A DNA stretch of 64,000 nt from an uncultured Eubacteriales bacterium (GTDB lineage: Bacteria; Bacillota; Clostridia; Oscillospirales; UMGS1783), in contig CAKSHC010000002.1 of the NCBI GenBank assembly GCA_934456365.1, forward strand, positions 160,508 to 224,507. The letters run 5' to 3'. Shown piece after piece: positions 5,501 to 22,112 of the stretch. The notes under the pieces were generated by a model, which had not been told where the DNA came from, made no database searches, and saw only the letters and a program-made list of their open reading frames with translations. Numbering within the stretch: the first letter of the stretch is position 1; each line of letters opens with the position of its first letter. A program made the position numbers and the translations under genes.

Positions 5501-5894
5501 GGTCATCCTTTACAGCGACGGCGAGTGCAGCACGACCTTTACGGTCAAAGCCAACACCCCGCACGATCACCTCTTCGGCGAGGACTGGAAGGCCGACGGT
5601 GAGAACCACTGGCACGCATGCGAATGCGGCGAGGTGGCCGATAAGGCGGCGCATACCTTCGTTTGGAAGATCGACCGGGAGGCGACCGAGCAGGAAACCG
5701 GCCTCAAGCATGAGGAATGCTCGATCTGCGGCGCCAAGCGCAATGAGAACACCGTGATCGACAAGCTGGCGGGCGGCGGCGAAACGCCTCCGAACCCCAA
5801 CACCGGGGATACCCGGATCTGCCTGTGGGTGGCGTTGAGCCTGATTGCCGGTGCGTCGGTTGTGCTTTTCCAAAAGAAAAAGGAAAATCGATAA
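2511..5894 (+). CDS. cell-wall-sorted surface protein with two blocks of Pmp-like parallel beta-helix repeats and duplicated Cys/His modules
   Basis: Start placed at MKKKLF behind a GGAGG RBS. The track ORF 2436..5894 carries an unsupported 25-aa leader. The signal peptide ends at VQA. There are many GGGV...N beta-helix repeat units. The C-terminus is PPNPNTGDT, then a hydrophobic segment, then KKKENR, which is an NPxTG-type sorting signal. Confidence 0.8.
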   Translation: MKKKLFALLLSLVMVAALLPVTVQAAETAHANHCECGTEKLSYGGHAHTAGIEWREISSLNQINRDGYFYLTDTSTRLNSWTCAYNATVCLNGHDIILVGDDTGITVNSGKTLTITDCREPMGTITHAMKSEEQKYQGRAITVNGSLVLYNGAISGNEAEASGAGVAVYQGGSFVMRGGKISENKTSAWSSGGGVFIRKGEFTMTGGVIEKNYAQGSGGGVYNVAGTILLDSSATIRENEANYESGTSSGGGVANYHGSFTMQGGTIANNRCGGNGGGGVSIQAEYGNGFTTNSTFNMTGGIIAANTSSMYGGGLGLYAGQSVHTIANIRGTAQIYDNKAQSGGGVAVNGGAMLYLSENAAISSNKTGDSVRRGNGGGVFLTTPGGYSGYGYFMMLGGTISDNTAQRGGGVFAPAGTTFEMQGGTITGNKAADGGGVYAQSDKIVLRYTPQIIGNQDKEDGSVSNLFFYYGNGSNAVVPISAGDLMDGASIGVSLWDGATYPAILTRDAVNKDYFFADKDAYEVAKAADGTLILQERTTPPAEHKHCVCATGELSADGHTHNKEQVWTPVSDLSEITGAGYYYLTKNIVLEQYVSTDNSYSCYGWVAPDGAALCLNGYSITMKNPAEADVDKTQEENKYYDGYVDVIQVEGTFTLTDCKPAAQQGTITHGQDASGTTYNGRGVHVEGGVFNQFGGKISGNTTAYDVGGAGVAVERGSDRETKGAYNLYGGEISGNTGKNGGGVSVFGGIFRMFGGRIVDNTADHMIHEEFYGKGGGVYVGWTSEFEMLGGEISGNSANKIGAGVYLTAYAKQGATVYFSGGTATFKVSGGAVVENNRANGALNNVYLASATSDFDAVQSTITIAGALTGRIGVTAGKAPGLIATGAAANTDYSGILLSDNADYSIIHNPGDATQLWLSDGAPLPPVYRIVEGANGSWKQESEGGLTFRADGDVSKFAGVTVDGDRLDAGNYEVASDATAVTLKPEYLASLEIGEHTLVILYSDGECSTTFTVKANTPHDHLFGEDWKADGENHWHACECGEVADKAAHTFVWKIDREATEQETGLKHEECSICGAKRNENTVIDKLAGGGETPPNPNTGDTRICLWVALSLIAGASVVLFQKKKENR

Positions 5895-7282: not shown

Positions 7283-7837
7283 TCAGCTCTCCTTTTTTTC
7301 GATCAGAAAGAAGAAGGGGGCCGCGGGGGAATTGACGATGCGCACCAGGGTGGCGCAGAAGGCGAAGCGGCTGAGGGCGGAGAGCTCTTGGCGGATGAGC
7401 TCGCCCTCGGCGGCTCCCTCGGGGTGCCCGGGATAGACGGCCACCAGCAGCGCTCCGCCGGGGGCGAGGAGCTCCAGGGCGGCGCGGATGGCGGGCAGGG
7501 TGCTTTCGCGGCGGGTGGTCACGCTTTTATCGCCGCCCGGGAGCCAGCCGAGGTTGAAGAGCCCGGCGGCGATCGGCTCGGGGATATGGGCTTTGGCGTT
7601 GGCGTGGGAATCGTGGATCAGGGTGACGTTTTCGCGGCCATGCTCTTTTAAGAGGGCGGCCGTTTTGGAGAGGGCCTGGTCCTGGATATCGAAGGCATAG
7701 ACGCGCCCGGTTTCGCCGACCTGCTCGGAGAGCCAGAGGGTGTCGTGGCCGTTGCCCATGGTGAAATCCGCGGCGGCGGCGCCGGGGAAGAGGTGCGGCG
7801 CGATCAGCGCTTTTTGGGTGGAGAGAAGATCGATCAT
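7283..7837 (-). CDS. class I SAM-dependent methyltransferase (putative rRNA methylase, YtqB-like)
   Basis: 184 aa. The motif DFTMGNGHDTL...YAFDIQ fits the small putative rRNA methylase family. Confidence 0.65.
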   Translation of the reverse strand: MIDLLSTQKALIAPHLFPGAAAADFTMGNGHDTLWLSEQVGETGRVYAFDIQDQALSKTAALLKEHGRENVTLIHDSHANAKAHIPEPIAAGLFNLGWLPGGDKSVTTRRESTLPAIRAALELLAPGGALLVAVYPGHPEGAAEGELIRQELSALSRFAFCATLVRIVNSPAAPFFFLIEKKES

Positions 7838-8796
7838 TCTCTTACCTCGCTTTGCGGGAAGCGGGATTCGGTGAACTCGCGCAGGGCCCCGTCGTAGCGC
7901 GCGGGATCGGTCACGCGCAGGTGGGAATGCTTGCCGTGGGGGAACCAGACGACCATTTTATCGCTCTTTGTGCGGGCGATGATCTGTTCGGCGCGCTCGG
8001 GGAGGGAGAACACGTCTTCCCGGCTGTGGAGGAAGAGGATGGGGACTTTCAGGCGGGGCACAGAATAGTAGGGCCCGTGGGTGAAGGGATTTTTCCCGCT
8101 GTGGAGGAAGAGGAGGAACATGCATTCCTGCAGAACGGGGAAGGTGGGCTTATGGAGCTGCTTCATGTGGGTGCGGAAGGTTTCGGCGAAGGTGGTGAAG
8201 GCCCCGTCGGCGATCACGCCGTCCACGCAGCCCGGGCAGGCCGGATCGGTTGCGGCATAGAGGGCGGTGGCGCTGCCGATGCAGACGCCGTGGAGCAGCA
8301 CGCGCTGGCCCATTTTTTCCAGAAGGCGAAGCCAGGCGAGAACGTCGCGGTACTCGCGCAGGCCGACGGTATTGTATTTCCCGTCGCTTTTGCCGTGGGC
8401 GCGCCCGTCGATGACCAGCACGTTATAGCCGAGGGCTTTGTAGGGGATGGCGAAGTAGTAGGAATAGGTGAGGGCTTCGGCGCGGCCGGAGAGGAGAAAG
8501 ACGGTGCGGGGAAAGCCGAAGTCGAACCATTCGCCGTAGAGGTTGAAGCCGTCGTTTTGGATGTGCAGATCGGTTTTATGGGCGGCGTTTTGGGCACCCC
8601 AGGCCATGCCTTCATTGAACATGCGCACAGCCTCGGGATCCTCGGGGAAGGAGCAGACGCCGCGCGCCCAGTCGCTTTTCGAGCGGCGCACGAGCTGGCG
8701 GCGGTAAACGTCGGCTGCGAGGGGGAAGGTGAAGCAGAAAAGCCCCACCACCGATAGGGCCAGAAGGCCCAGCAAGATCCAGAAAATCAGCTCCAT
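7834..8796 (-). CDS. membrane-anchored alpha/beta hydrolase
   Basis: N-terminal TM helix, HGKSDG and GVCIGSAT nucleophile-elbow motifs. Confidence 0.7.
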   Translation of the reverse strand: MELIFWILLGLLALSVVGLFCFTFPLAADVYRRQLVRRSKSDWARGVCSFPEDPEAVRMFNEGMAWGAQNAAHKTDLHIQNDGFNLYGEWFDFGFPRTVFLLSGRAEALTYSYYFAIPYKALGYNVLVIDGRAHGKSDGKYNTVGLREYRDVLAWLRLLEKMGQRVLLHGVCIGSATALYAATDPACPGCVDGVIADGAFTTFAETFRTHMKQLHKPTFPVLQECMFLLFLHSGKNPFTHGPYYSVPRLKVPILFLHSREDVFSLPERAEQIIARTKSDKMVVWFPHGKHSHLRVTDPARYDGALREFTESRFPQSEVRE

Positions 8797-8806
8797 TGGC
8801 TTCTCC

Positions 8807-10375
8807 TTACGAGTGGGTCACGCCCACGATCAATTCATCCACATCCTGCCCGCCCCAGATCACACCGGTATCGGTGAGCGGGAAGGCTTCACGCAGCGTA
8901 TCCTCCAGGGCATAGCAATCGTCGGCGTTCAGGGACTGGCCGTAGAACAGGACGGCCATTTCGCGATCCTTTTCGGGGATTTGAGAAAGAGCCCGGCAGA
9001 GGACCTCGCCGCGGTCTTCTCCGGCTGCGATCAGGCGGCGGTCCAGCAGGGCCACGCAGTCGCCCTCGCGGCAGGAAACGCCGCCGATCTCGGCTTGGCG
9101 CACGGCGCGGCACAGGCGCAGGGTGGCGACGCTTTCCATGCCGCGCTGCATGGCGGCAAACTGGATGGCGGGATCGGTTTCCTGCGGGACGATCATGGAG
9201 AGGGCGAAGTAGCCCTCGACGAGCGAGCGGGTGGGCAGGATCCGCACGGTTTTCTTTTCGAAGAGCTCGGTGGCCTGCCGGGCGGCGGGGAGAAGGTCGG
9301 GATCGTTGGGGAGGACGATGATGGAATCGGCGTTGAGCGAGCGGTAGGCCTGGAGGAACTCCTCGGTGGAGGTGTTCATGGTTTGGCCGGCGTTGATCAC
9401 GAGGTCGCAGCCGAGGGATTCGAAGGTTTCGAGAAACCCGTCGCCCTGGGCGGCGGCGACGAAGGCGATGGCCTTATGCTCGCGCGCCGGCTCGGCGGGG
9501 GAGGCGGCGGCTTCGTCCATATTTTCGATTTTGGCGTGGACGAAGGTGCCGTATTTTTCGGCCTTTTGGAAGACCTCGAGCGGTTTTTTGGTGTGGACGT
9601 GGACCTTCACCAGGTCCCCTTCGCGGATGGCGACGATGGAGCGGCCGAGCGTTTTCAGATAGTCGATAAAGGAATCGATGTCGAAGCTCAGGTCGCGCTC
9701 GGGCAGGCGCAGGAGAAATTCGGTGCAGAAGCCGTAGGGCTCCTCCTTCTGCGGGTAGTTGACGGCCGAGCGCACGCTTAAGAGCCCTTCCACGCTGCCT
9801 TTGGAGAAGAGGGTGACCAGGCCCTGGCCGCCGCTGTCGACCACGCCGGCCTCCTTGAGGACGGGAAGCATTTCGGGGGTGCGGGAAAGGGTTTTGGCGC
9901 AGGCGTCGCGATAGATCGCCCAGAGCTCTTCGGCGGGAAGGCCCTCGCGAACGGCGGCCTGCGCCGCCCGGGCGCCTTCGCGCGAAACGGTGAGGATGGT
10001 GCCCTCGGTGGGGTTGACCACGGCGGCGGCCGCCTTTTCGGCGCCCCGGCGCAGGGCCTGGGCCAAGAGGGCGGCGTCGGCGCTTTCGTGGCCTTCAAAT
10101 GCCTGCGCGATACCCTTAAAGAGCTGCGACAAAATGACGCCCGAATTGCCGCGCGCGCCGAGCAGCATGCCCAGCGAGAGCTCGGCGGCGTATTGGCCGA
10201 GGTTTTCGTTGGAGCGGGCGCGGTTGAGCCCGTTTTCCACCGTCAGGCGCATATTGGTGCCGGTGTCGCCGTCGGACACCGGGAAAACGTTCATGGCGTT
10301 GATGGCCGTTTCCTGATTTTTCAGATTTTGCCAGCCGACCCGCACGAGGGTCTCAAAGAATGTTCCGGTCAACAT
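8807..10375 (-). CDS. fakA: DAK2-domain fusion protein YloV (fatty acid kinase ATP-binding subunit FakA family)
   Basis: The DGDTGTNM Dak2/DhaL motif near the N-terminus and the 522-aa length match YloV/FakA. Confidence 0.75.
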   Translation of the reverse strand: MLTGTFFETLVRVGWQNLKNQETAINAMNVFPVSDGDTGTNMRLTVENGLNRARSNENLGQYAAELSLGMLLGARGNSGVILSQLFKGIAQAFEGHESADAALLAQALRRGAEKAAAAVVNPTEGTILTVSREGARAAQAAVREGLPAEELWAIYRDACAKTLSRTPEMLPVLKEAGVVDSGGQGLVTLFSKGSVEGLLSVRSAVNYPQKEEPYGFCTEFLLRLPERDLSFDIDSFIDYLKTLGRSIVAIREGDLVKVHVHTKKPLEVFQKAEKYGTFVHAKIENMDEAAASPAEPAREHKAIAFVAAAQGDGFLETFESLGCDLVINAGQTMNTSTEEFLQAYRSLNADSIIVLPNDPDLLPAARQATELFEKKTVRILPTRSLVEGYFALSMIVPQETDPAIQFAAMQRGMESVATLRLCRAVRQAEIGGVSCREGDCVALLDRRLIAAGEDRGEVLCRALSQIPEKDREMAVLFYGQSLNADDCYALEDTLREAFPLTDTGVIWGGQDVDELIVGVTHS

Positions 10376-10384: not shown

Positions 10385-11716
10385 TTACTTCCGGTCTTTG
10401 CCGATGGCGTCGATCGACGCGGGCAAAAAGAGCGACAGGATCGCCGAAGCCACCGCAGCGGCGATCACGAGATAGGGCATGGCGAAGCTCAGGCCGGCGT
10501 TTTTCAGATTGATCCAGACCGGCCCGACGGCCACGGCGGTGGCCAGGCCGGAGAAGAGGCCCTGGACGGCGAAATACATGGCCGGGTGCGACACGCCCTT
10601 ATCCACGGCGTCGCGGTGGGCGAGCGCCGAGGGGATCACATAGCCGACCGAGAAGAAGCTGCCCACGCCGAAGGAGGCGCACAAAGCGCCCAGGCAGGCA
10701 ATCGGCAGGCGCAGCGCCTGCGGCAGCGTTGCCGCCAGCGACATGGCGCACATGGCCACGATGAAGGTGCCGATCGAATAAAGATAGCCGACGCGGAAGC
10801 CGAATTTATGCACGATCTTGTTATAAAGCAAAAGGGTGAAGGGCACGGGGGCAAACACGCAGGCGGTGAGCACCGTGATCTGCCAGCCGACGAAAAGAAG
10901 GGTGCCGGAATAGTAGACGTTCTGGGCGGTGAGGAAAAGCTGAAGACAAAACTGCAGCGCGCAGTAGACGCCCATCCAGAGCCAGAAATGGCCGTTTTTG
11001 AAGGTGTATTTCAAGGATTCGATCATCCCGACCTGCTTTTCCACCGCAAGCTCCGGCTGATCCTTTTTGAGCGAGGAGGGCTCCTTGATGAGGAAGAGGG
11101 GGATGAGCATGGTGAGCACGAAGGGCAGGCAGATCAGGGCGATGGTGCGGATGTTGAGGTTGCCGACCAGCAGGGGGATCAGGGCATAGCCGACCACGAA
11201 ATAGATGATGTCGAAGGTGGATTTATAATTGGAAAGGCGCAGACGATCCTGCTCGTTGTCCACGATCTCGGAGAAGGTGGCATAATAGGTGACCATCACC
11301 AAGGTGTAGGCGCTGTAGAAGAGGCAGAGCAGGAAGCCGAACCAGACGGTGTTGAGCAGGCTCTCGCCGTTGGTGAGGGGCAGGAGGAAGAGGAGGTAGG
11401 CCGCGATCATGGGGATCATACCCGCCACGATCGAGGGGCGGCGGCGGCCGAAACGTGAGCGCAGGTTGTCGGTCAGGCTGGCGAGGGGGATGTCGATCAG
11501 CCCGTCGACGATCTTGGCTACCAGCACCAGCACGCTCCAGATCCCGGCGACGACCAGCGTTTTATTGAGGTAGGTCCAGTTTTCGATGTTTTTGGAAAAG
11601 CCCTGGGTCATGAGCGCGTCGCAAAGGTAGGAGGTGACGATCAGGTTGAGAAGATTGACCCCGCAGCCGCTGGCGGCATAGAGAAAGAGGGTGGATTTTT
11701 TCTGAATGGTTTTCAT
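10385..11716 (-). CDS. MFS transporter, GPH/MFS_2-like (D-x-x-G-R-R-R-P loop motif)
   Basis: 443 aa with about 12 TM segments. The LASLTDNLRSRFGRRRP motif between TM2 and TM3 is typical of the MelB/MFSD2A-type subfamily. Confidence 0.7.
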   Translation of the reverse strand: MKTIQKKSTLFLYAASGCGVNLLNLIVTSYLCDALMTQGFSKNIENWTYLNKTLVVAGIWSVLVLVAKIVDGLIDIPLASLTDNLRSRFGRRRPSIVAGMIPMIAAYLLFLLPLTNGESLLNTVWFGFLLCLFYSAYTLVMVTYYATFSEIVDNEQDRLRLSNYKSTFDIIYFVVGYALIPLLVGNLNIRTIALICLPFVLTMLIPLFLIKEPSSLKKDQPELAVEKQVGMIESLKYTFKNGHFWLWMGVYCALQFCLQLFLTAQNVYYSGTLLFVGWQITVLTACVFAPVPFTLLLYNKIVHKFGFRVGYLYSIGTFIVAMCAMSLAATLPQALRLPIACLGALCASFGVGSFFSVGYVIPSALAHRDAVDKGVSHPAMYFAVQGLFSGLATAVAVGPVWINLKNAGLSFAMPYLVIAAAVASAILSLFLPASIDAIGKDRK

Positions 11717-11720: not shown

Positions 11721-12674
11721 TCATGCCTTTCCCAGAATATGATCGATCAAAGCCTTTTCTTCGGCGAGATCCTCGGAGATGGGCTTGCCGAAATAATAGG
11801 CCGACATCAGCCCCGGGCCGACGTTGACTCCGTTGGCGGGGTAGACCTCGGTGAGCAGGATCTCTTTGGGAGCGAAGGTTTCGCGCACAAGCTCGACCAA
11901 AAGCTCGGCCTGCCTTTTCCGATCGGAATAGGCGATCACCACGATCTGCTCGGAGGGGTTTTCAATGGTTTTTTCCATATAGCGCAGGATGGCGTCGAGC
12001 CCGGCGCGCTCGCCCTTGGCCTTGCCCAAAACGGTGGTTTTGCCGCTCCGGTCGATCTCACCGAGAGGCTTGATGCCCACCAGTGTGCCAAAGAAGGCGG
12101 CACTGCCCGAAACGCGCCCTTTGCGGGCCACAAAGGTCAGATCGTCGAGCCAGCCCATCTGGTGGAAGCGGTCGCGGTTGGCGAGGAGCCAGGCGGCCGT
12201 TTCGTCAAGGCTTTCGCCGGCGGCGCGGTGGAGAGAGGCATGAATGGCCATCAGGCCGAAAAGGGAGGTGTAGCGTTTGGTATCCACGCAGATCACCCGC
12301 CGTCCGGGGCAGGCGGCCATGGCTTCCTCGGCGCCCCGGCAGGCGAAATCGTAGGTGCCGGAAAGGCCGGAGGAGATGGTGAGGCAGAGCACATCTTCGC
12401 CCTTTTTCAGATGCTCCTGAAAGGCGAGGGAGAATTCGGTGATGTTGGCCGGAGAGGTGGTATAGACGGCGTCTTTACGGCGCAGGGAGGCGTAGAAATC
12501 CTTCTGCGGCATGAAATCCCATTCGCAGCGGGAAGGGCGCTCGGTTTTATCGGGCAGGGTGATGTGTCCCGGGATCACCTCGATCCCGAATCTTTTCTGC
12601 AGCTCGGGGGAGAGGTCGCAGGTAACGTCGGCCAGGATGGTAAAAGACATGGCAAAGCTCCTTTCAGCAATCAC
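11721..12674 (-). CDS. DegV family fatty-acid-binding protein (FakB-like)
   Basis: 317 aa. The N-terminus ILADVTCDLSPELQKRFGIEVIPGHITL and the length fit DegV/EDD-domain proteins. Confidence 0.85.
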   Translation of the reverse strand: MIAERSFAMSFTILADVTCDLSPELQKRFGIEVIPGHITLPDKTERPSRCEWDFMPQKDFYASLRRKDAVYTTSPANITEFSLAFQEHLKKGEDVLCLTISSGLSGTYDFACRGAEEAMAACPGRRVICVDTKRYTSLFGLMAIHASLHRAAGESLDETAAWLLANRDRFHQMGWLDDLTFVARKGRVSGSAAFFGTLVGIKPLGEIDRSGKTTVLGKAKGERAGLDAILRYMEKTIENPSEQIVVIAYSDRKRQAELLVELVRETFAPKEILLTEVYPANGVNVGPGLMSAYYFGKPISEDLAEEKALIDHILGKA

Positions 12675-13587
12675 AGCTTGTCAAAAATTCGGAGAGGGCC
12701 TTTTCCAGCGGCGCACCGCCGGACAGAAAGCCCACGGCATGACCCGAGGCGGGCGAAAGGAAGAGCTCCTTACGCGCGGCGCAGGCCCTGTAGTTTTGCA
12801 GGGTATCGTCCGGGGAAACGACCCGGTCGGTTTCGGTGTGGAGAAAAAAGGTCGGAGTCCGGCAGCGAGAGAAGGCCTGCACCGTATCGCCGCCGGCGAG
12901 GGATGCGTGGGCAAAGAGGCGGGCAAAGAAATCGATCCCGCGGGCGATCAGAGGGGCAAAGGGGCCGAAGACCGGGCGGGCCAGACGGGTGATCTGCCGC
13001 AAGGGGGAGCGAAAGCCGCAGTCCACCATCAGAGCGTGCACGAAATCCGGCATTCGATCGGACAGGCGGGCAACGGTGTGGCCGCCCATGGAAAGGCCGC
13101 AGACCAGACAGGGCTCACCGCGGCGGCGGGCGGAGAGCTCGGTCAGCCAGCGGGCGAGGTCCTTTTCCTCGAGGGCTCCCAGGGTGATGCGGCGGCCGCC
13201 GCTTTCGCCGTGGCCGCGCTGCTCGATCATCAGGAGGTTGTAGCCGCGGCGGCGCAGGAAAAGCCCGAGTGAAGAAAAGTTGCTCAGATAAAAGGCCCGA
13301 TAGCCATGGACAAAAAGCGCTGTGCGGGAAAAGCCGCCGTCGTAGAAATGGCCGACGAGGCGGGCGCCGTCCTGTGCCCGGATTTCCCATTTTTGGGAGG
13401 GGAGGGCGCGGAGCTGAGCCATATCCTCCTTGAGGCGGGCGGCATAAGGGGCGTAGTGGGTGCGCGAAAGATCCAGCTCGTCGAGCGGGGGATCGGTGCC
13501 GCGGCGGGTGATCCGCTCAAAGAGAAAGAGGCAGATGGCAAAATAGATCAGAAGATTTCCCAGCAGGATCAGGAGAGCGATGGCCAT
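12664..13587 (-). CDS. membrane-anchored alpha/beta hydrolase (possible thioesterase/lipase)
   Basis: N-terminal TM helix, HGYRAFY...GHGESGG and GLSMGGHT serine-hydrolase motifs. Confidence 0.7.
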   Translation of the reverse strand: MAIALLILLGNLLIYFAICLFLFERITRRGTDPPLDELDLSRTHYAPYAARLKEDMAQLRALPSQKWEIRAQDGARLVGHFYDGGFSRTALFVHGYRAFYLSNFSSLGLFLRRRGYNLLMIEQRGHGESGGRRITLGALEEKDLARWLTELSARRRGEPCLVCGLSMGGHTVARLSDRMPDFVHALMVDCGFRSPLRQITRLARPVFGPFAPLIARGIDFFARLFAHASLAGGDTVQAFSRCRTPTFFLHTETDRVVSPDDTLQNYRACAARKELFLSPASGHAVGFLSGGAPLEKALSEFLTSCDC

Positions 13588-14576
13588 GTTGCCTCCTCTC
13601 CCCGCAGCCCGTCTTCGGTTTGCCGGACAAAAAAGCAGCGCAGTGAGGCCAGCTCATTTCCGGCGACCGAAAGGAAGACATCCGGCAGAGGCTGAAAGCT
13701 TTTGACCGGGGCATTTTCGGTTTCGATGGTTTTCGGTTCAAAACGCCCGGAGCCGAAGGCTTTGAAAAGGGCTTCCTTTTGGGTCCAGACCATCAGGAGC
13801 TTTTCCGGGCAAATGGCTTTCGCTTCCCGCTCGGTGAGAAAATGCCGGGCGGCGCCGTCTGGCGGGATGGCGCGGGCTTTGGCCTCCAGATCCACTCCCA
13901 CCGGTTTGCGGGAGAGGGCGACGGCGGCAAAGGAGCCGCTGTGGGACAGCGACAGGAAGCAGCGCTCGGAGAGGGGCTTGCCGTCGGCATTTTTATGGAC
14001 GGCGGCCCTTTCGGGGGTGAGCCCCAGCGAGCGGAAGAGGGCATACCCGAGCAAAAGACGGGCGAAGGCTCTTCTGCGCTTTTCCTCGCCCTCCGGCATG
14101 GCCGCCACCTCGGGATCTTTGATCGCGGGCAAAGGCGCGTCCGAGGCGATGGGAAGCAGGTAGACATCAAGCAGGGGACGCTCGCGCAGCGACCGGCGCA
14201 GCGCCTCGGCCTGGGTGCAGACCGGCTTTCCCGTCAGGCAGGAGGTGGCGAAATGCTCGCAGTTGTTGGTGAGGATATGGTAGCCGCGTTCGCCGAGGCG
14301 CGAAAGCGCGCACTGGGCGACCTTTTCGCGCGGGCGGGCCTGCAAACGCTCGAGGGGCGAGAGGGAGCAGACCTCCAAAAAGCCGCCGGCCAGGAAATCG
14401 GACAGGTCGGTGGCGAGCACCTCGATCTGCTCGGCGGGGGTGGGGTCGTGGTGGATGGGGTTGCGGCCGAACTGGACCACGCAGTCATCCGAGAGGTAGA
14501 CCCCGTAGTGGTAGAGCCCGTGGAAGCCGACCCGGATCAGGTCGCCGCGGCGGGCGGAGGTCAGGATCCATTTCAT
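13569..14576 (-). CDS. fusion protein: N-terminal LRAT/NlpC-P60-type papain-like acyltransferase domain joined to a C-terminal Sfp-type 4'-phosphopantetheinyl transferase
   Basis: The N-terminal roughly 130 aa carry HYGVY and NNCEHFATSC, the LRAT His/Cys catalytic motifs. The C-terminal half carries GKPL, LSLSHSG, GVDLE and WTQKEALFKAFG, which are the Sfp/EntD PPTase motifs. Confidence 0.65.
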   Translation of the reverse strand: MKWILTSARRGDLIRVGFHGLYHYGVYLSDDCVVQFGRNPIHHDPTPAEQIEVLATDLSDFLAGGFLEVCSLSPLERLQARPREKVAQCALSRLGERGYHILTNNCEHFATSCLTGKPVCTQAEALRRSLRERPLLDVYLLPIASDAPLPAIKDPEVAAMPEGEEKRRRAFARLLLGYALFRSLGLTPERAAVHKNADGKPLSERCFLSLSHSGSFAAVALSRKPVGVDLEAKARAIPPDGAARHFLTEREAKAICPEKLLMVWTQKEALFKAFGSGRFEPKTIETENAPVKSFQPLPDVFLSVAGNELASLRCFFVRQTEDGLRGEEATWPSLS

Positions 14577-14827
14577 TGGGCCGTTTTCGCCTCGATGAAA
14601 TCCACCACCTGAGAAACGGTTGTGAAATCGCCCATGCTCACCCCATCGAAGCGGATGTCAAAGGCCTCCTCGATGGCGATGACGATATAGAGGATCCCGA
14701 CCGATGAGAGACCGAGGTCGGTATGCAGATTGCTCTGCTCGGTCAGGCCGGCCAGTTTCTCTTCCGGCACGCTTCCCATCTGGCGGAGGATATCCGTCAG
14801 CTTTTCAAGAATGATCGCTCTGCGCAT
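14573..14827 (-). CDS. acyl carrier protein (stand-alone)
   Basis: 84 aa. The DLGLSSVGI motif is a phosphopantetheine-attachment site. Its start overlaps the PPTase-fusion gene by ATGA. Confidence 0.75.
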   Translation of the reverse strand: MRRAIILEKLTDILRQMGSVPEEKLAGLTEQSNLHTDLGLSSVGILYIVIAIEEAFDIRFDGVSMGDFTTVSQVVDFIEAKTAQ

Positions 14828-16319
14828 TTTTCTCCCTCAGAATCTTCATGCTGGGCGAACGCTCGAAATCGGCGTCGCGCACGATGATTTTGCTGACCCG
14901 TTCAAAGCCCGGCAGCCCGGCGTTGATTTTTTCCACTTCGGCGCGGATATGCGCTTCGGGATCGGCGATGCCCTGCGCCTTCAGGACGACCTGGCGCGGC
15001 ACCACCTGCAGGGAAAGGACCCCGTGGGAATCGACATAGACCAGGGAATCCTGGACGGCCTCGATGGTGTTGAAAAGCGTTTCCAGCTCGGCCGGAGAAA
15101 CCTTCTCGCCCGAGGGGAGCACCAGAACCTCCTTGATGCGGCCGGTGATGTAGAGGAAGCCTTCTTCGTCGAAGCGGACGAGGTCGCCGGTGCGCAGCCA
15201 GCCGTCGCAGAAGGCCTGCTTGTTGGCTTCGGGATCGAGGTAACCGTCCATGATGTTTTCGCCGCGCAGCCAGAGCTCGCCGTCGACGATCTTAAGCTCC
15301 TGTCCGGGATAGGGGAGGCCGACGGACGAGGGCTTTTTCAGGCTTTCGGGGTTGCCCGAAACGAGGTTGGCGCTTTCGGTGAGGCCGTAGCCGGCCAGCA
15401 GGGCGATGCCGAGCTTATCGTATTCCCGGATGAGGTAGGGCGGGACGACGGCGGCGCCGCAGACGATGGTTTTCAGATCGTCGCCGAGCATATTGCGGCC
15501 GAACTGCTTGGAGAGGTTGAGCGCCATTTCGGCTAGCGCCGGCACCATGACCATCACGGTGGGGCGGAAGGCGGCGATGTCGCGGAACATATCCTTGTTG
15601 TTGCGGGTGATGAAGATGGAGGAGCCGGTATAGAGCGAGGAGAGCAGGTTGCGGATCAGGCCGAAGACGTGGGTCAGCGGCAGGACCAGCAGGTAGCGCT
15701 GGCCGAAGATATCATGGATGCCGTAGCAGCCGTTGCGCACGCCGGCCATCAGCGCCCGGTGCGACAGCAGCGCGGCCTTGCTCTTTCCGGTGGTGCCGCC
15801 GGTGAAGAGCACGGTGGCGGGATCCTCGGGGGAAAGCTTGGCCATCGGCGCGCCCTGCTCGGGCAGGGAGGCGGCGGTGAATACGGGAACGCCGGTTTTT
15901 TCGGCGGCGAGAGCGGTGTTGGGCAGCATCGGCTCGCAGGAGAGGAGCGCCTTGAGGGAAAAGCCCGCGGTGCAGCCCAAAACGGCCTCGGCCGGGAGGT
16001 GGGGCGGCAGAAGCACAGCCACGCAGCCCGCGGTGGCGGCGCCGAGGAAGAAGACGGCGAAATCGGCGCAGTTGGGAAGATAGAGGCCGACCCGATCGCC
16101 CTTTTTCACGCCTTTTTCGGCCAGCGCCCGGCGCACCCGGGCTGCGCGCTCCTCCAGAGCGGAGAAGGAAAGGGTTTCTCCGTCGACCACGGCGGGCGAA
16201 TCGCCGTACTGGGAAAGGCAGCTTTCCCACATCTCGGCAAGGGTGGGATAGCTTCGGATGCGGGCGAAGGTTTCGGGGGTGGTGTAGGCGGCAAAGCACT
16301 CGAGCTTGGGATCGGTCAT
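14805..16319 (-). CDS. AMP-dependent synthetase/ligase (fatty acyl-AMP ligase or acyl-carrier-protein synthetase-like)
   Basis: ANL motifs FTGGTTGKSKAALLSH (A3) and GYGLTESAN (A5). 504 aa. Confidence 0.8.
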   Translation of the reverse strand: MTDPKLECFAAYTTPETFARIRSYPTLAEMWESCLSQYGDSPAVVDGETLSFSALEERAARVRRALAEKGVKKGDRVGLYLPNCADFAVFFLGAATAGCVAVLLPPHLPAEAVLGCTAGFSLKALLSCEPMLPNTALAAEKTGVPVFTAASLPEQGAPMAKLSPEDPATVLFTGGTTGKSKAALLSHRALMAGVRNGCYGIHDIFGQRYLLVLPLTHVFGLIRNLLSSLYTGSSIFITRNNKDMFRDIAAFRPTVMVMVPALAEMALNLSKQFGRNMLGDDLKTIVCGAAVVPPYLIREYDKLGIALLAGYGLTESANLVSGNPESLKKPSSVGLPYPGQELKIVDGELWLRGENIMDGYLDPEANKQAFCDGWLRTGDLVRFDEEGFLYITGRIKEVLVLPSGEKVSPAELETLFNTIEAVQDSLVYVDSHGVLSLQVVPRQVVLKAQGIADPEAHIRAEVEKINAGLPGFERVSKIIVRDADFERSPSMKILREKNAQSDHS

Positions 16320-16321: not shown

Positions 16322-17578
16322 TCAGTCCTCCTTTTCGGTCAGTGATTTTAATTTCAGCTCGGTTTCATGGAGCTCGTTTGCGATTCGTTCGATCTCCTGC
16401 ATGGGGGGAAGGCCCTTGCAGGCGGGCAGGGCAACCGGCGCGCCGAAGGCCAGCTTCTGACGGTGCAGGATGTTTTTGCGCGGGGCGATATAGACCGGGA
16501 CGATGGGCACGCCGGCGCGCAGGGCCATGAGGATCATGCCGGTTTTGAAGGCGCCGACGGGGTCGCCGGTGCGGTTGAGGCCGCCCTCGGGGAAGATCTG
16601 GATGGCGCAGCCCGCCTTGAGCTCCTCTTCGACCAGCCGGAAGGAGGAGAGGCGGAAGTCGGCCTTATCCACGGGGATGCAGTGGAGCTGGCGGAAGAGC
16701 CAGGTGAGAAAATCGTTGGCGTAGAGCGCGCGGGTGGCCAGCGAATGCAGCCGGCGGAACCATACGGCCATCAGCATGATGACGGGGTCCAGGAAGGAGC
16801 GGTGGTTGGCCATATACAGAACGCCGCCCCGGGGGTGCTTTTTCGCTTCGTCGTTGAGATAGAAGCGCTTGGGGCGAAGAAAGAGCCAAAGCGGGAGGGC
16901 GCCAGTGACGCGCACGAATTCGTAGAAGACGTGGTTTTTCGGCGGCTCGAGGCGCTTTTCCTCCAAAAGGCGGCCCAGGGTGGCCACCCGGGCGCGCAGC
17001 AGCTCGGTCACGGCGGCGAGGTTTTCCTTTTCGGAGAGGGAATCGTCCCAATGCTCGGACACGAGAAAGGGCTTGCCGATGATGACCCGCGCGCGGCGCG
17101 GGGAGAAGTAGGAGCCGTTGGTGTAGACGGGGATAATGGGCTTGCCCGAAAGATGGGCCAGGTAGACGGCGCTGGTTTTGAAGGGCAGGAGGGGCGTTTC
17201 ATCCTTTCGCGGCAGGCGCGATTCAGGGAAAATGCCGACCACGCCGCCCTTTTCGAGGATGGCGAGGCATTCGCTGAGGAAGGAGAAGTTTTTCGAGCTG
17301 CGGTCCACGAAGATTCCGCCCATGGCCCGCAGAAAGGGGCCGAGCAGCTTTTTGCGAAAGAGCACCTCGGCCATGAGGGTGCGCAGGGTGCGGCCGAAAA
17401 AGACAAAGAGCAAAACGGCGTAGTCGAAAACCGAGGTATGGTTGCAGACCACGATCGCTCCGCCCCGGATGCGCCGGCTCTGGGCGGCTTTCTCTTCGTA
17501 GTAGACCTTGGTGCGGAAGCAGAACCACTGGATGGGCCAGGCCGTGATCTTCACGAAGGCGTTGAAAAAGCGGATCAT
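16322..17578 (-). CDS. tandem lysophospholipid-acyltransferase (PlsC/LPLAT) didomain protein
   Basis: Two HX4D acyltransferase motifs in one 418-aa polypeptide: VCNHTSVFD in the N-terminal half and MANHRSFLD in the C-terminal half. Confidence 0.75.
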   Translation of the reverse strand: MIRFFNAFVKITAWPIQWFCFRTKVYYEEKAAQSRRIRGGAIVVCNHTSVFDYAVLLFVFFGRTLRTLMAEVLFRKKLLGPFLRAMGGIFVDRSSKNFSFLSECLAILEKGGVVGIFPESRLPRKDETPLLPFKTSAVYLAHLSGKPIIPVYTNGSYFSPRRARVIIGKPFLVSEHWDDSLSEKENLAAVTELLRARVATLGRLLEEKRLEPPKNHVFYEFVRVTGALPLWLFLRPKRFYLNDEAKKHPRGGVLYMANHRSFLDPVIMLMAVWFRRLHSLATRALYANDFLTWLFRQLHCIPVDKADFRLSSFRLVEEELKAGCAIQIFPEGGLNRTGDPVGAFKTGMILMALRAGVPIVPVYIAPRKNILHRQKLAFGAPVALPACKGLPPMQEIERIANELHETELKLKSLTEKED

Positions 17579-19458
17579 GCGCAGTCCCTCCCGGAAAGGA
17601 GGCGGCAGAAGTCCTCCACGGTGGCCGGGGCTTCCTGCCCGTCGGGCAGAGAGAAGCCGTAGGCGTCCTGAAGGGACGAGAGGAGGGAGAAATAATCCAG
17701 CGAGGAGCCGTTGAGGTCGAAGAAGAAGTTGGACTGCGGGGAGATGCCCTCGGGCTCGCGGTCGAGCGCCTGGGCAAACAGGCGGATCAGGGCATCGGTC
17801 AGCTCGCTGCGGCTTTCCTGAGCCGCTTCCCGGCCGGCGGGGCGCAGCTCGCCGTGCGCGAGGCGCTCAGCCAGTCGCTTGCGGCTGAGCTTGAAGTCCT
17901 CCGGCAAAAGGAGGGGGGAAACGGTCAGATAGAGCCCGACCTTGCCCAAAAGCCCGAGGCGGGAAAGCTCCTTCTGCGCTGCGTCGCGCAGGGCGGCGCA
18001 GGTCGCCTCGTCGGCAAAGGGGGAGAGCTGGATGAGAAGGGTGGGGCCGGAAACAAGGGCGAAGCCTTCGTTTTCCGGAAGCGAGAGCGAGGCTTCGATG
18101 AGGGTGGGGTTGAGGTTTTCCCCATCCGGGCCGATGACAAGATCGTCTTTCCGTCCGGCGAGGTAGAGGCGACCCTTTTTCAGCTCGGCCAGGTCGTCTG
18201 TTTTGAGCCAGCCGTCGGGCTTTTCCAGTTCACTGGCGGAGGTGAAAACGCGTTGGGCGGTGGTTTCGCCCCGCAGGAAGAGCTCGCCTTGCTCGGTTTT
18301 GTAGAAAACCGAGGCGAAGGGCTTTCCCGCCGAGCCGGAGATGCGCGTGCGGGGCACGCGGGAGAGCTCGACCGAGGTGATGCCGGCCTCGGTCATGCCG
18401 TAGCCGTTGGAAAGGCGGTAGCCGATGGCGTTGAAGAAGAGGAGCGTTTCGCGGGAAATGGCGCTGCCGCCGGCGATGGTGAAGCGGATGCTGCTGCCGA
18501 ACATTTTTGCGCGCACCGAAGAAAAAGCCAGCCTGGAAAAGAGCTTTGCCAGAAGCGGAAGGCCGGAAATGCGGTCATAGAGACGCAGGGCGCTTTGGAG
18601 CCTTTTCTCCTGCCCGGTTTTGCGGGCCTCGCGCAGCGCGGCGGCATAGACCTTATTCCAGAAGAGGGGCACGCAGAAGATGTGCGTGATCCCGTGCCAG
18701 CGCACCGTTTTGAGCACGGTATCGGGGGTGAGGTCGTTGAGGAAAACGAAGGTGCGCGAGAAGAAGGCGAACCACAGGTAAACGGCGAAGAGGCCGAAGA
18801 TATGATACAGAGGCAAAACGACCAGCTGCTTGAGGTGGCCCTGATAAAAGCCCTTCATATCGGGGCTTTTGCGGATGATGCGGCCGCTGTCGAAGATCTG
18901 CGCGGCAAGATTTGCGCCGGTATAGGCGCAGAGCTTGACCTCGCCGCCCGTGCCGGAGGACATCAGAAGAAGCTCGTTTGCCCAATGCGCTTCGGCCTCG
19001 CCTTCGTCCAAAAAGGGAGCCACGGTGGGGACGGCATAGGACGCCTCTTCGCTGACCACGGCGGCAACCTGATTGGCTGTCAGCAGCCGGTCGAGCGTTT
19101 GGCGATCCAGGCGGGTGTTGAGCAAAAGCGGGCGAAAGCCGAGCTGGGCGAGAGCCCACATCACGCAGAGGAAGTCCGGTCCGTTGGGCAGGGAAAGCCC
19201 TACGATCCGGCCTCTTTCCACGCCCGCAAGGCGCACGGAAAGGCCTGCGGCGAAGGCGCGGGTGCGCCGGTCGAAGTCGCCGTAGGTCATGAAATTCGTG
19301 TGCCCGCCGTCGCGGCTTTCGCAGAACACGGCGTCGCGCTGCTCGACGATCATTTCGTAGATCTCGTGCAGGGTGCGCCCGCTTGCCGCCAGGCGCGTGA
19401 CCTTATCGGCCACGAAGGCATCAATGGTTGAAAATCCACCGAGGAAATCTGGTTTCAC
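17575..19458 (-). CDS. adenylation (AMP-binding) domain fused to a C-terminal carrier (PCP/ACP-like) domain
   Basis: GTG start with a ggaaagga RBS. It has a deviant A3 motif LMSSGTGGEVK and a YGMTE A5 motif. The C-terminal FFDLNGSSLDYFSLLSSL resembles a thiolation-domain Ser motif. Confidence 0.7.
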   Translation of the reverse strand: MKPDFLGGFSTIDAFVADKVTRLAASGRTLHEIYEMIVEQRDAVFCESRDGGHTNFMTYGDFDRRTRAFAAGLSVRLAGVERGRIVGLSLPNGPDFLCVMWALAQLGFRPLLLNTRLDRQTLDRLLTANQVAAVVSEEASYAVPTVAPFLDEGEAEAHWANELLLMSSGTGGEVKLCAYTGANLAAQIFDSGRIIRKSPDMKGFYQGHLKQLVVLPLYHIFGLFAVYLWFAFFSRTFVFLNDLTPDTVLKTVRWHGITHIFCVPLFWNKVYAAALREARKTGQEKRLQSALRLYDRISGLPLLAKLFSRLAFSSVRAKMFGSSIRFTIAGGSAISRETLLFFNAIGYRLSNGYGMTEAGITSVELSRVPRTRISGSAGKPFASVFYKTEQGELFLRGETTAQRVFTSASELEKPDGWLKTDDLAELKKGRLYLAGRKDDLVIGPDGENLNPTLIEASLSLPENEGFALVSGPTLLIQLSPFADEATCAALRDAAQKELSRLGLLGKVGLYLTVSPLLLPEDFKLSRKRLAERLAHGELRPAGREAAQESRSELTDALIRLFAQALDREPEGISPQSNFFFDLNGSSLDYFSLLSSLQDAYGFSLPDGQEAPATVEDFCRLLSGRDCA

Positions 19459-19632: not shown

Positions 19633-19836
19633 TTATTCGGCTTTTTCGTTTTTTTCGGCGTTTTCCCCGGCCTTGGGGTCATCTCCCTCGGCGGCGGGTT
19701 TTTCTTCTTCGGGAGCAGCCCAGGCGTCGGCCTTCTGCACTCCGGTGGAAACCGTGTGGACAATGCTCTTGCCCAGCTGGGTAAAGGCCTTTCCGAGGCC
19801 GGTGCCCGTTTTTTTCCATTCGTCTCTCAATGCCAT
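19633..19836 (-). CDS. small protein (67 aa) with an acidic low-complexity tail
   Basis: MALRDEWKKTGTGLGKAF...EEKPAAEGDDPKAGENAEKNEKAE. A ggaaagggga RBS sits 6 nt upstream. The track ORF 19633..20178 has a spurious N-terminal extension. Confidence 0.4.
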   Translation of the reverse strand: MALRDEWKKTGTGLGKAFTQLGKSIVHTVSTGVQKADAWAAPEEEKPAAEGDDPKAGENAEKNEKAE

Positions 19837-20258
19837 TGTGAAAATCCCCTTTCCGGATTGAATTTTTCCAAAAGAGCCAGGGCGGATTCGATCCGTCCAG
19901 CCACATTGCCGGGGGCCAGCCCGGCCACGGCGGTGTTGCACTGGTCCATCGGGATGAGAATGCGCCGGGCGCGCGAGCGGGCCACGGCGGCGGCCATGGC
20001 GGGGGTGACCTCGCCTAAAAGCGCGTCGGCCATCACGATCCCCATCGGGCCTAAGATCACGTCGGCCTCGCGGCAGGCGACGATCACGGCGTTTTCTCCG
20101 GTGGCGCCCTTGGCGGGGCCGCCCTTGAGCATGGTCTGGGTGGCGGCCGAATTGGTGCCCACGGCGCGGATGGCGCACTCGGGCAGCCGTTCGGCCACGG
20201 CCTTGACGAGGAGCTTTCCCAAAGCGCCGCCCTGCCCGTCGATGATCAGAACGTTCAT
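19827..20258 (-). CDS. hypothetical protein (DUF3842-like)
   Basis: 143 aa, MNVLIIDGQGGALGKLLV... Its start overlaps the stop of the upstream capD-like gene by 4 nt. Confidence 0.45.
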   Translation of the reverse strand: MNVLIIDGQGGALGKLLVKAVAERLPECAIRAVGTNSAATQTMLKGGPAKGATGENAVIVACREADVILGPMGIVMADALLGEVTPAMAAAVARSRARRILIPMDQCNTAVAGLAPGNVAGRIESALALLEKFNPERGFSQWH

Positions 20259-22111
20259 TTCGAAGGCGCCTCGCTGACTCCGGTACCGCCGTACTGGGAA
20301 ATGATATCGAATACCAGATCGTGGACCTTGACGGGGTTGGGGTTGGCGCCCTTGGCCATGCGCTCGAGAGCGCCGAGACGATCGTGGAAGTTTTCCAGAT
20401 TCACGTCGGTGCCGCGCATCACGAAGATTTTTTCGTGGCTTGTGGCGTCGACCGATTCGCTGTCCTGCACCAGCTCTTCATAGAGCTTTTCGCCGGGACG
20501 CAGCCCGGTGGTCACGATCTGGATATCCACCCCCGGCTCGAAGCCCGAGAGGCGGATGAGGTTGGTGGCCAGGTCGTAGATTTTTACCGGCTGGCCCATA
20601 TCCAGAACGAAGATCTCGCCGCCGCGGGCGAGCGTGCCCGCCTTCATCACGAGGGAAACGGCTTCGGGAATGGTCATGAAATAGCGGGTCATATCCTTAT
20701 GGGTCACGGTAACGGGGCCGCCGGCGGCGATCTGCTTTTTGAAGGTGGGGATCACCGAGCCGTTGGAGCCCAGCACATTGCCGAAGCGCACGGCGGCGCA
20801 TTCGCAGCCGCAGCCGGCATAGGATTTCACCAGAAGCTCGGCCATGCGCTTGGTTGCGCCCATGATGTTGGTGGGGTTGACGGCCTTGTCGGTCGAGATC
20901 AGGATGAAGCGGGAAACGCCGCCCATCAGGCAGGCCTCCAGCAGGTTTTTGGTGCCGAAGATATTGTTTTTCACCGCTTCGACGGGGTTGATCTCCATCA
21001 TCGGCACATGCTTGTGGGCCGCGGCGTGGAACACGATATCCGGCTTGAACTGGCGGATCACCTGATCGAGGCGCTTGCGGTCGCGGATGCTGCCGAGGAT
21101 GAGCTCGTAGCGGGAGGTATCGAACCGCTGCTTGAACTCTTCGTTGATCTCGAAGAGGCCGTTTTCATGGATGTCGAAGATGATGAGCTTTTTGCAGCCG
21201 TGCAGGAGCGACTGACGGCAGAGCTCGCTTCCGATCGAGCCGGCGCCGCCCGTGACCAGGATGGTTTTCCCGTTGATGAAGCGGATCACGTCGCTCATAT
21301 CGGTGGAAACGTTTTTGCGGAAGAGGAGGTCTTCGATCGAAACGTCGCGGATGCCGTGGCCGTTGTTCATGAAGCTTTCGAAGTTGACGGCGTCTTTGAA
21401 AATGCGCAGGCGCACGTTGAGGGTTTTGCAGATATCATAGATCTCGCGCACCTCTTCGCTGCGGATGGAGGGGATGGCGATGATGACGTCGGTCGCGTTG
21501 TATTTGCGCACGGCGGCCGCCAGCCGGTCGATATCGCCCACGATGGGCACGCCGGCGATGCGCATGCCGTGCTTGGAGGTATCGGCGTCGCAGGCGGCGA
21601 CCGGATAGGTCCCGTCGCCGGGGTTTTCGCACAGGCGCTTGATGAGCATGGCGCCGGTGGAGCCCGCGCCCACGATCACCGCGCGGGAATGGGCCTTATC
21701 CGAGGAATGGCGGGTGGTGGCCATCCAGTGGCGGAAGCGCGGGATGATGCGCAGGCCGGTGGTGGCGCAGAACACGAGGAAGAGGTAGATCAGCGGGATG
21801 GTGCCCGACGGCAGAAGCCCCACCGCCCGCAGAAGCAGCAGGCAGAGCGCCGAAATGGCCGAGGAGAAGAACTGGCGGAAAACATCCGAAAAGCCCATAT
21901 AGGCCCAGATGCTGTTGTAGGTGCCCAGGGCGAAGGAGGCGGCCGCGAGGGTGAGCGGGGCGACGGTCAGATAAAGAAGCAGCGCGTGGATATCCACTCC
22001 GAAGCCGAAGAGCTGCCCCTCCAGCCGCAGCAGCACGGCGCAGAGCATGGCCAGGATCCCGATGATCAGATCCCCGAGCAGATATTCCCATTGCAAGCGT
22101 TTTTCTTTCAT
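20255..22111 (-). CDS. polysaccharide biosynthesis protein (CapD/PglF/WbpM-type membrane-anchored nucleotide-sugar 4,6-dehydratase)
   Basis: Start placed at MKEKRLQ behind an aaggaagg RBS. The track ORF's first 97 codons are arginine-rich junk. Four N-terminal TM segments, two Rossmann glycine motifs and a short-chain dehydrogenase fold. Confidence 0.8.
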   Translation of the reverse strand: MKEKRLQWEYLLGDLIIGILAMLCAVLLRLEGQLFGFGVDIHALLLYLTVAPLTLAAASFALGTYNSIWAYMGFSDVFRQFFSSAISALCLLLLRAVGLLPSGTIPLIYLFLVFCATTGLRIIPRFRHWMATTRHSSDKAHSRAVIVGAGSTGAMLIKRLCENPGDGTYPVAACDADTSKHGMRIAGVPIVGDIDRLAAAVRKYNATDVIIAIPSIRSEEVREIYDICKTLNVRLRIFKDAVNFESFMNNGHGIRDVSIEDLLFRKNVSTDMSDVIRFINGKTILVTGGAGSIGSELCRQSLLHGCKKLIIFDIHENGLFEINEEFKQRFDTSRYELILGSIRDRKRLDQVIRQFKPDIVFHAAAHKHVPMMEINPVEAVKNNIFGTKNLLEACLMGGVSRFILISTDKAVNPTNIMGATKRMAELLVKSYAGCGCECAAVRFGNVLGSNGSVIPTFKKQIAAGGPVTVTHKDMTRYFMTIPEAVSLVMKAGTLARGGEIFVLDMGQPVKIYDLATNLIRLSGFEPGVDIQIVTTGLRPGEKLYEELVQDSESVDATSHEKIFVMRGTDVNLENFHDRLGALERMAKGANPNPVKVHDLVFDIISQYGGTGVSEAPSK

Positions 22112-22112
22112 G

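Follow-up and report, generated by a model that had tools for sequence, protein, structure and literature searches.

Background

The catalytic triad of the LRAT and PLAAT (HRASLS) enzymes is given as Cys-His-His (PMC10318531), and three papain-superfamily enzymes, BtrH of butirosin, CtaG of closthioamide and AdmF of andrimid biosynthesis, use carrier-bound acyl donors and were stated in 2020 to be the sole three such transacylases (PMC7183216, PMC10318531). Here we describe a gene from an uncultured Eubacteriales bacterium (GTDB lineage Bacteria; Bacillota; Clostridia; Oscillospirales; UMGS1783) whose 335-amino-acid product joins an LRAT-family domain to an Sfp-type 4'-phosphopantetheinyl transferase (PPTase), which lies directly downstream of the gene for a stand-alone acyl carrier protein (ACP) in a lipid operon of housekeeping type, and whose LRAT half may act on carrier-bound acyl groups. 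The gene was found in a stretch of 64,000 nucleotides (GenBank assembly GCA_934456365.1, contig CAKSHC010000002.1, positions 160,508 to 224,507 of the forward strand), which we call the window and in which all coordinates below are counted.

With the PLAAT/HRASLS enzymes and LRAT, the window protein shares fold and family, a histidine that precedes the cysteine, the placing of that cysteine in an NCEHF motif and the expected acyl-cysteine chemistry. It differs from them in being bacterial, cytoplasmic and free of an anchor, in having Gln35 and an extra cysteine, Cys113, and in its setting, as the LRAT domain here is either fused to a PPTase or stands alone, always in an operon of ACP and ligase genes, and may take its acyl chain from a carrier thioester rather than from a phospholipid. 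The other half of the protein resembles Sfp, AusB, HetI, PptT and AASDHPPT in its two-lobed fold, its GxDxE, W..KEA..K and S..H motifs and its position beside presumed carrier substrates, but differs from Sfp-type PPTases in its N-terminal LRAT domain, in missing the NCBIfam equivalog cut-offs and in being evolutionarily labile, with the domain absent or dead in some lineages.

The mechanism that we propose for the LRAT half, a Cys-His transacylation from a carrier thioester, is that of BtrH, CtaG and AdmF, but these belong to BtrH_N/C39-like and transglutaminase-like families for which no sequence relationship to the fusion was detected, and they serve the making of antibiotics whereas the operon here is of a housekeeping lipid type. 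The nearest described counterpart of the operon is the Aas/LplT system, in that a PlsC acyltransferase, an AMP-forming ligase and a major-facilitator transporter are present, encoded here as separate proteins, and that carrier proteins are used. Unlike Aas/LplT, the operon has its acyltransferases, ligases and carriers in duplicate, has a transporter of the MFS_2 (glycoside-pentoside-hexuronide, GPH) type instead of LplT, adds an ACP of its own, a PPTase, an LRAT domain, FakA/FakB and two hydrolases, and encodes proteins that miss the equivalog cut-offs.

A search of the available literature gave no paper dealing with both LRAT and phosphopantetheinyl transferase, and searches on bacterial LRAT with ACP, on operons of DegV, PlsC and acyl-ACP synthetase and on exogenous fatty acids in Clostridia did not find this operon. 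What is new is the architecture and its context; neither domain is itself new. A preliminary description of the window, made by a model from the sequence alone, had called the domain combination unfamiliar; the architecture is not a rare one and is the dominant form in its clade, as set out below.

The fusion protein and its two domains

The fusion is encoded on the minus strand by an open reading frame at 13569..14576 that starts with ATG. Amino acids 1-134 (14175..14576, minus strand) form an LRAT/PLAAT-like domain, a circularly permuted NlpC/P60 domain assigned by Pfam PF04970, fold match and alignment, and amino acids 135-335 with the stop codon (13569..14174, minus strand) form an Sfp-type (group II) 4'-phosphopantetheinyl transferase domain, assigned by Pfam PF01648 and Foldseek. 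These were the sole matches in a Pfam scan of the protein: LRAT (PF04970) on residues 8-118, in an alignment that spans positions 3-119 of the 120 in the profile and scores 69.9 bits (cut-off 24.3; E = 3.1e-19), and ACPS (PF01648) on residues 225-293, which scores 38.8 bits (cut-off 25; E = 1e-9). This two-domain match is far above chance level. The NCBIfam models of the AusB and HetI PPTases also match the C-terminal half, both under their cut-offs.

In a sequence search of the PDB the N-terminal half aligned with PLAAT4/RARRES3 and HRASLS2 and the C-terminal half with Sfp, and the folds agree with this. An AlphaFold2 model built from 24 homologues had a mean predicted local distance difference test score (pLDDT) of 88.6. 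Foldseek matched its N-terminal domain to PLAAT3, PLAAT4 and HRASLS2 with target template modelling (TM) scores of 0.71-0.79 (0.71-0.78 for the PDB entries 7zot, 7zom, 4dpz and 4dot, at E = 5e-6 to 3e-5), and its C-terminal 200 residues to Sfp (4mrt_A; E = 2e-9 over 208 columns, target TM-score 0.60), with AASDHPPT and PptT likewise matched by the C-terminal half. The motifs named in the preliminary description were all found at definite residues, HYGVY at 23-27 and NNCEHF (with Cys106) at 104-109 in the LRAT half, and GKP at 199-201, SLSHS at 208-212, GVDLE at 227-231 and WTQKEALFK at 264-272 in the PPTase half, and its claim of LRAT and Sfp-type PPTase domains in a single 335-amino-acid protein is borne out by the Pfam matches, the PDB alignment and the AlphaFold2 and Foldseek results together.

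The N-terminal half belongs to the LRAT/PLAAT family on the evidence of its profile match, its motifs and its fold. In the PDB alignment its His23 (codon 14508-14510, minus strand) corresponds to His23 of PLAAT4 and its Cys106 (14259-14261) to the catalytic Cys113 of that enzyme, while Gln35 (14472-14474) occupies the position of the PLAAT His35. Across 212 proteins of fusion length His23, Cys106 and His108 are each conserved in 211, and in 22 stand-alone LRATs His23 is kept 21 times and Cys106 every time. Position 35 is Gln in 197/212 fusions, Ala in 8 and Glu in 5, and it is His in just 2 of the 22 stand-alone forms. The third residue of the Cys-His-His triad of LRAT and PLAAT is thus a glutamine in the fusion, which, being polar, could still orient His23. 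The chemistry of this half is predictable from its residues, and would consist of an acyl thioester on Cys106 with His23 as the base.

A second cysteine, Cys113 (14238-14240), lies seven residues past Cys106 in the pattern NNCEHFAxxC and is kept in 210/212 fusions and in 22/22 stand-alone LRATs. It has no counterpart in PLAATs; it may relay the acyl group, take part in redox chemistry or be of structural importance. PLAATs and LRAT bear transmembrane anchors; no hydrophobic segment or transmembrane anchor was found in the fusion or in the stand-alone forms of 135-142 amino acids. More distant bacterial LRATs carry a hydrophobic tail, unlike the clade of the fusion.

Searching 5.8 billion proteins with the fusion gave 177 matches, and the 120 matches listed all carry both PF04970 and PF01648 in about 320-360 amino acids. 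Identity to the window protein is 90-97% in three of these listed homologues and 36-43% in the others. Both halves were present in 221 of 268 collected proteins, and the architecture and the length recur in over 200 sequence clusters; the name given to the homologues by NCBI is ‘lecithin retinol acyltransferase family protein’ only. When one genome was scanned for each GTDB species, at least 510 species proved to encode a relative, all of them gut, rumen or faecal Clostridia and mostly known from metagenome-assembled genomes, with taxa that include Oscillospiraceae, Acutalibacteraceae, Ruminococcus, Christensenellaceae, ‘Eubacteriales’ and Lachnospiraceae. Within Clostridia of the Oscillospirales type, this bacterial LRAT clade occurs chiefly as LRAT-PPTase.

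This spread bears on whether the fusion could be an artefact or a pseudo-enzyme, that is, two genes run together by a frameshift error of sequencing, or a non-catalytic look-alike of NlpC/P60, as the preliminary description had allowed. The degeneration of the PPTase half in a minority of relatives could be cited in favour of such a reading, and nothing else could. The recurrence of the same architecture and length in over 200 clusters, with a relative in at least 510 species, goes against it, as does the agreement of independent assemblies and gene callers, since a relative of 90% identity (locus L081), called by an independent pipeline, gave the same 335-amino-acid product in the same gene order. 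Comparison with this relative also gave a ratio of non-synonymous to synonymous substitution rates (dN/dS) of 0.12 for the LRAT half and 0.17 for amino acids 135-300 of the PPTase half, so both halves are under purifying selection, with the last 35 residues relaxed (dN/dS 0.61). A frameshift is ruled out by the architecture of the homologues, the independent gene call and the dN/dS values, and a look-alike without the Cys and His by the retention of Cys106, His23 and the NCEHF motif in 211/212 fusions, so that we give this reading hardly any weight.

The carrier proteins and their coupling to the fusion

The C-terminal half is a genuine PPTase of the Sfp type, having the GxDxE and (W/F)xxKE(A/S)xxK signatures, a profile score above threshold and the two-lobed fold. 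Its key residues are G199-K200-P201, S209, H212, D229 (codon 13890-13892, minus strand), E231 (13884-13886, minus strand), W264, K267, E268 and K272, and among the 212 fusions D229 is kept in 200, E231 in 183, K267 in 202 and E268 in 200. A glutamine in place of the metal-binding Glu231 (GVDIQ) was seen in 17/212 fusions, which have the other PPTase motifs intact and apparently make up one subclade.

The stand-alone ACP (14573..14827, minus strand; 84 amino acids) was identified by Pfam PP-binding (E = 3.3e-6) and by NCBIfam ACP models (about 1e-10). Its gene lies upstream of the fusion and its TGA overlaps the ATG of the fusion in the sequence ATGA at 14576-14573, which is the reverse of the order in the preliminary description, where the stop of the fusion was said to overlap the start of the ACP. 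The predicted phosphopantetheine site of the ACP, Ser42 in LGLSSV, is invariant in 74/74 sequences, as is Ser586 (in GSSLDY) in 62/62 sequences of the carrier domain of a 627-amino-acid AMP-binding protein that is encoded by the first gene of the operon. Where the stand-alone ACP is missing, the loci still have a strong PPTase half and, beside it, the AMP-binding/carrier gene.

That the PPTase half primes the carriers of the operon, at Ser42 of the ACP and Ser586 of the carrier domain, is a well-supported prediction, with the AMP-binding plus PP-binding protein a likely further target. The activation of the ACP by the fusion, already proposed in the preliminary description, is well founded because the fusion, whose PPTase residues are intact, is translationally coupled to an ACP in which Ser42 never varies.

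For comparison of the operons, the proteins of the window were matched to the open reading frames of 80 related loci (handles beginning with L). In all 73 loci having a stand-alone ACP this gene is immediately upstream of LRAT, and the ACP stop overlaps the LRAT start by 4 nucleotides in 48 of the 73 and by 1 nucleotide in 13 (61/73 together). The adjacency of ACP and LRAT persists where a FadD-like ligase gene is absent and also where LRAT stands alone, and across the 80 loci the FadD-like ligase never occurs without the ACP. The pair of ACP and LRAT without a FadD-like ligase was seen in L012, L025, L026, L029, L067-L071, L076-L078 and others.

Gain and loss of the PPTase half

The place of the fusion after the ACP is taken by a stand-alone LRAT of 135-150 amino acids in Lachnospiraceae, in Butyrivibrio and in certain other lineages (L064-L080), and no separate PPTase gene was found within 10 kb on either side of such LRAT-only genes, bar a partial match at the end of L072. 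The open reading frame downstream of LRAT in L064 was considered as a detached PPTase half and proved to be unrelated.

About a dozen proteins of fusion length (some 5%) have lost the catalytic residues of the PPTase and kept the His and Cys of the LRAT half intact; in these GVDLE has, for example, become VSVAVS or VGIAIG and the W..KEA motif has gone. Two proteins with such a dead domain, P0210 (found in two independent assemblies) and P0169, are encoded directly after the ACP in otherwise intact operons, and the genes for dead-PPTase proteins in L083 (5897-6823), L084 (5847-6773) and L085 (5053-5925) follow the ACP directly and lie in complete operons. A neighbour-joining tree of the LRAT domains placed the stand-alone forms in at least five places among the fusions, and the PPTase half has been gained or lost at least five times.

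Because of the stand-alone LRATs, the dead PPTase domains and these scattered positions in the tree, LRAT is to be seen as the fixed core of the operon and the PPTase half as an accessory. That the PPTase half can be dispensed with weakens the idea of an obligatory channelling between the halves, and we propose that joining a carrier-binding enzyme to one that uses the carrier is a matter of convenience and not of necessity.

When 1.84 billion representative proteins were searched with the LRAT half alone, the nearest relatives were with few exceptions either of fusion length or stand-alone. The search, from which 39 matches of unusual length were scanned with Pfam, revealed no other informative fusions of this clade, whether to ACP, PlsC or ligase. 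Besides the stand-alone LRAT and LRAT-PPTase forms it gave fragments that were truncated or frameshifted and a few unrelated proteins with multiple repeats, such as P0121 (1125 amino acids), with 10 tandem LRAT-like stretches, and P0245 (489 amino acids), with 5.

What the LRAT half may do

The reading that we favour, at a probability of about 50%, is that the LRAT half acts on a carrier-bound thioester, most likely moving the acyl group of acyl-ACP through Cys106 to a further acceptor. A carrier thioester is favoured as the substrate because the ACP is adjacent to LRAT at every locus that bears such an ACP, because the only macromolecular partner of the fused PPTase is a carrier protein and because the clade of the fusion is without a membrane anchor. 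BtrH, CtaG and AdmF provide a precedent for carrier-bound donors in the papain superfamily. The keeping of a dead PPTase-like domain in intact operons is compatible with a role for this domain in docking to the carrier. An acyl transfer from ACP by way of the LRAT cysteine had been suggested in the preliminary description; genetic linkage speaks for it, and it is a plausible proposal.

In such a scheme the PPTase domain would use CoA and Mg2+ to place phosphopantetheine on Ser42 of the ACP and Ser586 of the carrier domain, and the FadD-like ligase and the AMP-binding/carrier protein would load fatty acids onto these as thioesters, with FakA/FakB, the hydrolases and the transporter providing substrates. 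The two PlsC domains would use the thioesters to acylate glycerolipid or lysolipid acceptors, in the manner of a disassembled Aas, while the soluble LRAT half, with Cys106 and His23 (and perhaps Gln35), would take the acyl chain from acyl-S-ACP as an acyl-Cys106 thioester and pass it to a lipid hydroxyl, to an amine or to water, so acting as a thiotemplated transacylase of the LRAT family.

Several points weigh against this scheme. To our knowledge all characterised LRAT/PLAAT enzymes use a glycerophospholipid ester, and not a thioester, as donor (also PMC10318531). Two PlsC domains are already present in the operon, so that a third consumer of acyl-ACP needs a third acceptor. Five loci (L038, L040, L041, L043 and L064) have LRAT without a stand-alone ACP, from which it follows that this ACP cannot be its sole partner, and the repeated loss or gain of the PPTase half means that the two halves need not cooperate physically. 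The association of ACP and LRAT is also conditional on the sampling, as all the related loci were retrieved by way of LRAT.

The main rival is that the LRAT half works on phospholipids as PLAATs do, cleaving the ester of a membrane or scavenged (lyso)phospholipid through acyl-Cys106 as a phospholipase A or transacylase, with the lysolipid and fatty acid then re-used by the ligases and PlsC in a bacterial cycle of the Lands type, and with the fusion reflecting nothing beyond shared regulation. The closest solved relatives of the domain are indeed PLAAT3, PLAAT4 and HRASLS2, the operon resembles a lysolipid re-acylation system in its Aas-type PlsC and ligase, MFS_2 transporter, membrane-anchored hydrolases and FakA/FakB, and both the persistence of LRAT at the five loci lacking a stand-alone ACP and the dispensability of the PPTase half would be in keeping with it. 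This rival is nevertheless at odds with the want of any membrane anchor or hydrophobic segment, the stand-alone forms being soluble proteins of 135-142 amino acids, and with a third triad residue, Gln35, that is unlike that of PLAATs; it leaves unexplained the near-universal overlap of ACP and LRAT, the choice of a carrier-binding fusion partner and the retention of dead PPTase domains, so that we hold it to be a possibility on the doubtful side.

An editing or releasing thioesterase of the type II kind, in which the LRAT half would hydrolyse misacylated or stalled phosphopantetheine thioesters to allow reloading, for example on carriers that the PPTase had mis-primed with acyl-CoA, would account for an LRAT half that is fused to a PPTase and coupled to an ACP, would suit a soluble protein and would make a third acceptor unnecessary, and PLAAT-type enzymes do hydrolyse their own acyl-Cys intermediate. 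Known editing thioesterases are, on the other hand, alpha/beta hydrolases and usually dispensable, two alpha/beta hydrolases are already in the operon and LRAT is its most strictly conserved element, kept where the PPTase is absent or dead, and we regard this reading as unlikely. A slimmer chance still is given to the LRAT half being an ATP-independent phospholipid:ACP transacylase, which would carry an acyl chain from a (lyso)phospholipid through Cys106 to the thiol of holo-ACP; the (lyso)phospholipids may be of host or dietary origin and the holo-ACP may be made by the protein's own PPTase half. Such an activity would explain the loci that have the ACP-LRAT pair without a FadD-like ligase.

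The operon

The fusion gene is the fifth of ten close-packed genes on the minus strand, which overlap or are separated by gaps of at most 9 nucleotides. The first (17575..19458) encodes the 627-amino-acid protein with an AMP-binding adenylating domain (Pfam AMP-binding, E = 1e-39) and a C-terminal carrier domain (PP-binding, E = 1.5e-7), and was found at nearly all related loci. It is followed by a gene for a tandem PlsC-type acyltransferase of 418 amino acids (16322..17578; Pfam PF01553 twice, E = 2e-48) with an HX4D motif in each domain, HTSVFD at amino acid 47 and HRSFLD at 259, which is represented by two separate genes at most related loci, and by one for a FadD-like adenylate-forming fatty-acid ligase of 504 amino acids (14805..16319; Pfam AMP-binding, E = 2.9e-69, and AMP-binding_C_3). 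The best NCBIfam matches of this ligase are long-chain fatty-acid ligases, the 3' end of its gene overlaps the start of the ACP gene by 23 nucleotides and it is presumed to be the loader of the stand-alone ACP. The tandem PlsC protein matched the PlsC part of the Aas-type model PRK08633 (E = 5.8e-38, 130 bits against an equivalog cut-off of 1221) and the ligase matched the ligase part of the acyl-[ACP]--phospholipid O-acyltransferase model PRK06814 (120 bits against an equivalog cut-off of 1349).

After the ACP and the LRAT-PPTase fusion (335 amino acids, 13569..14576; Pfam LRAT and ACPS) comes the gene for an alpha/beta hydrolase of 307 amino acids with an N-terminal transmembrane helix and a GLSMG nucleophile elbow (12664..13587; Pfam Hydrolase_4, E = 8.6e-21), the start of which overlaps the 3' end of the fusion gene by 19 nucleotides. 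A DegV/FakB-type fatty-acid-binding protein (11721..12674; Pfam DegV, E = 1.8e-53; TIGR00762 above cut-off and FakB1 weak) is encoded next; judging from the gene call in the relative L081, its true start is probably an internal ATG, which would make the protein 309 amino acids long. The remaining genes encode an MFS_2 (glycoside-pentoside-hexuronide) transporter of 443 amino acids (10385..11716; Pfam MFS_2, E = 4.9e-34), a FakA/YloV-type catalytic subunit of fatty acid kinase of 522 amino acids (8807..10375; Pfam Dak2, FakA-like_M and FakA-like_C; TIGR03599 YloV, 485 bits against a cut-off of 396) and, as the last of the block, a second alpha/beta hydrolase of 320 amino acids with a hydrophobic N-terminus (7834..8796; Pfam Hydrolase_4 and Abhydrolase_1).

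The block is strongly conserved among the related loci, where it takes two layouts. Type A has the genes in the order AMP-carrier, MFS_2 (about 640 amino acids), PlsC, PlsC, FadD, ACP and LRAT-PPTase; type B, to which the window belongs, has AMP-carrier, PlsC, PlsC, FadD, ACP, LRAT-PPTase, hydrolase, DegV, MFS_2, FakA and hydrolase. In all type-B loci a hydrolase gene directly follows LRAT, and the second hydrolase is also kept at the same position in loci of this type. The type-A transporter (e.g. L001 4962-6908), of about 640 amino acids, lies between the AMP-carrier and PlsC genes.

LplT was considered as an identity for the window transporter and rejected, as the protein is of the MFS_2/GPH type, its best NCBIfam matches are GPH and MelB, both under their cut-offs, and LplT was not matched. 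The lysolipid carrier MFSD2A belongs to the same MFS_2 family, and by analogy with it the transporter could be a carrier of lysolipids or other amphiphiles. As a whole the operon has the look of an Aas-like system that has been taken apart and duplicated, with carriers of its own, and joined to a fatty-acid kinase system, and its domain content points to a role in activating free fatty acids and loading them onto lipids.

Upstream of the operon lie genes for a DUF3842 protein (19827-20258, minus strand) and for a dehydratase-type protein with Polysacc_synt_2 and CoA_binding_3 domains (20255-22402, minus strand), and the same neighbours are present in L081. The GC content of the window is 61%, which is high for Clostridia, and two large open reading frames in it are nearly without a Pfam match, one of 1152 amino acids at 2436-5894 (plus strand; a sub-threshold CBM_X2 match alone) and one of 648 amino acids at 22923-24869 (minus strand).

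Significance

Bacterial proteins of the LRAT family are essentially unstudied and the operon gives them a pathway context, in which LRAT is the most conserved element across hundreds of species of gut and rumen Clostridia. Should carrier-bound acyl groups prove to be used by the LRAT half, thiotemplated acyl transfer would be known from a fourth papain-like enzyme, which would be the first one in the LRAT family and also the first in primary lipid metabolism. Were it instead a phospholipid:ACP transacylase, it would provide a new route by which gut Clostridia harvest acyl chains, and the LRAT family would again gain its first thiotemplated enzyme. The occurrence of the PPTase half in active, dead and absent states amounts to a natural experiment on the fusion of enzymes, and the operon itself is a testable candidate for the uptake and incorporation of host or dietary fatty acids, or of lysolipids, by abundant anaerobes of the gut.

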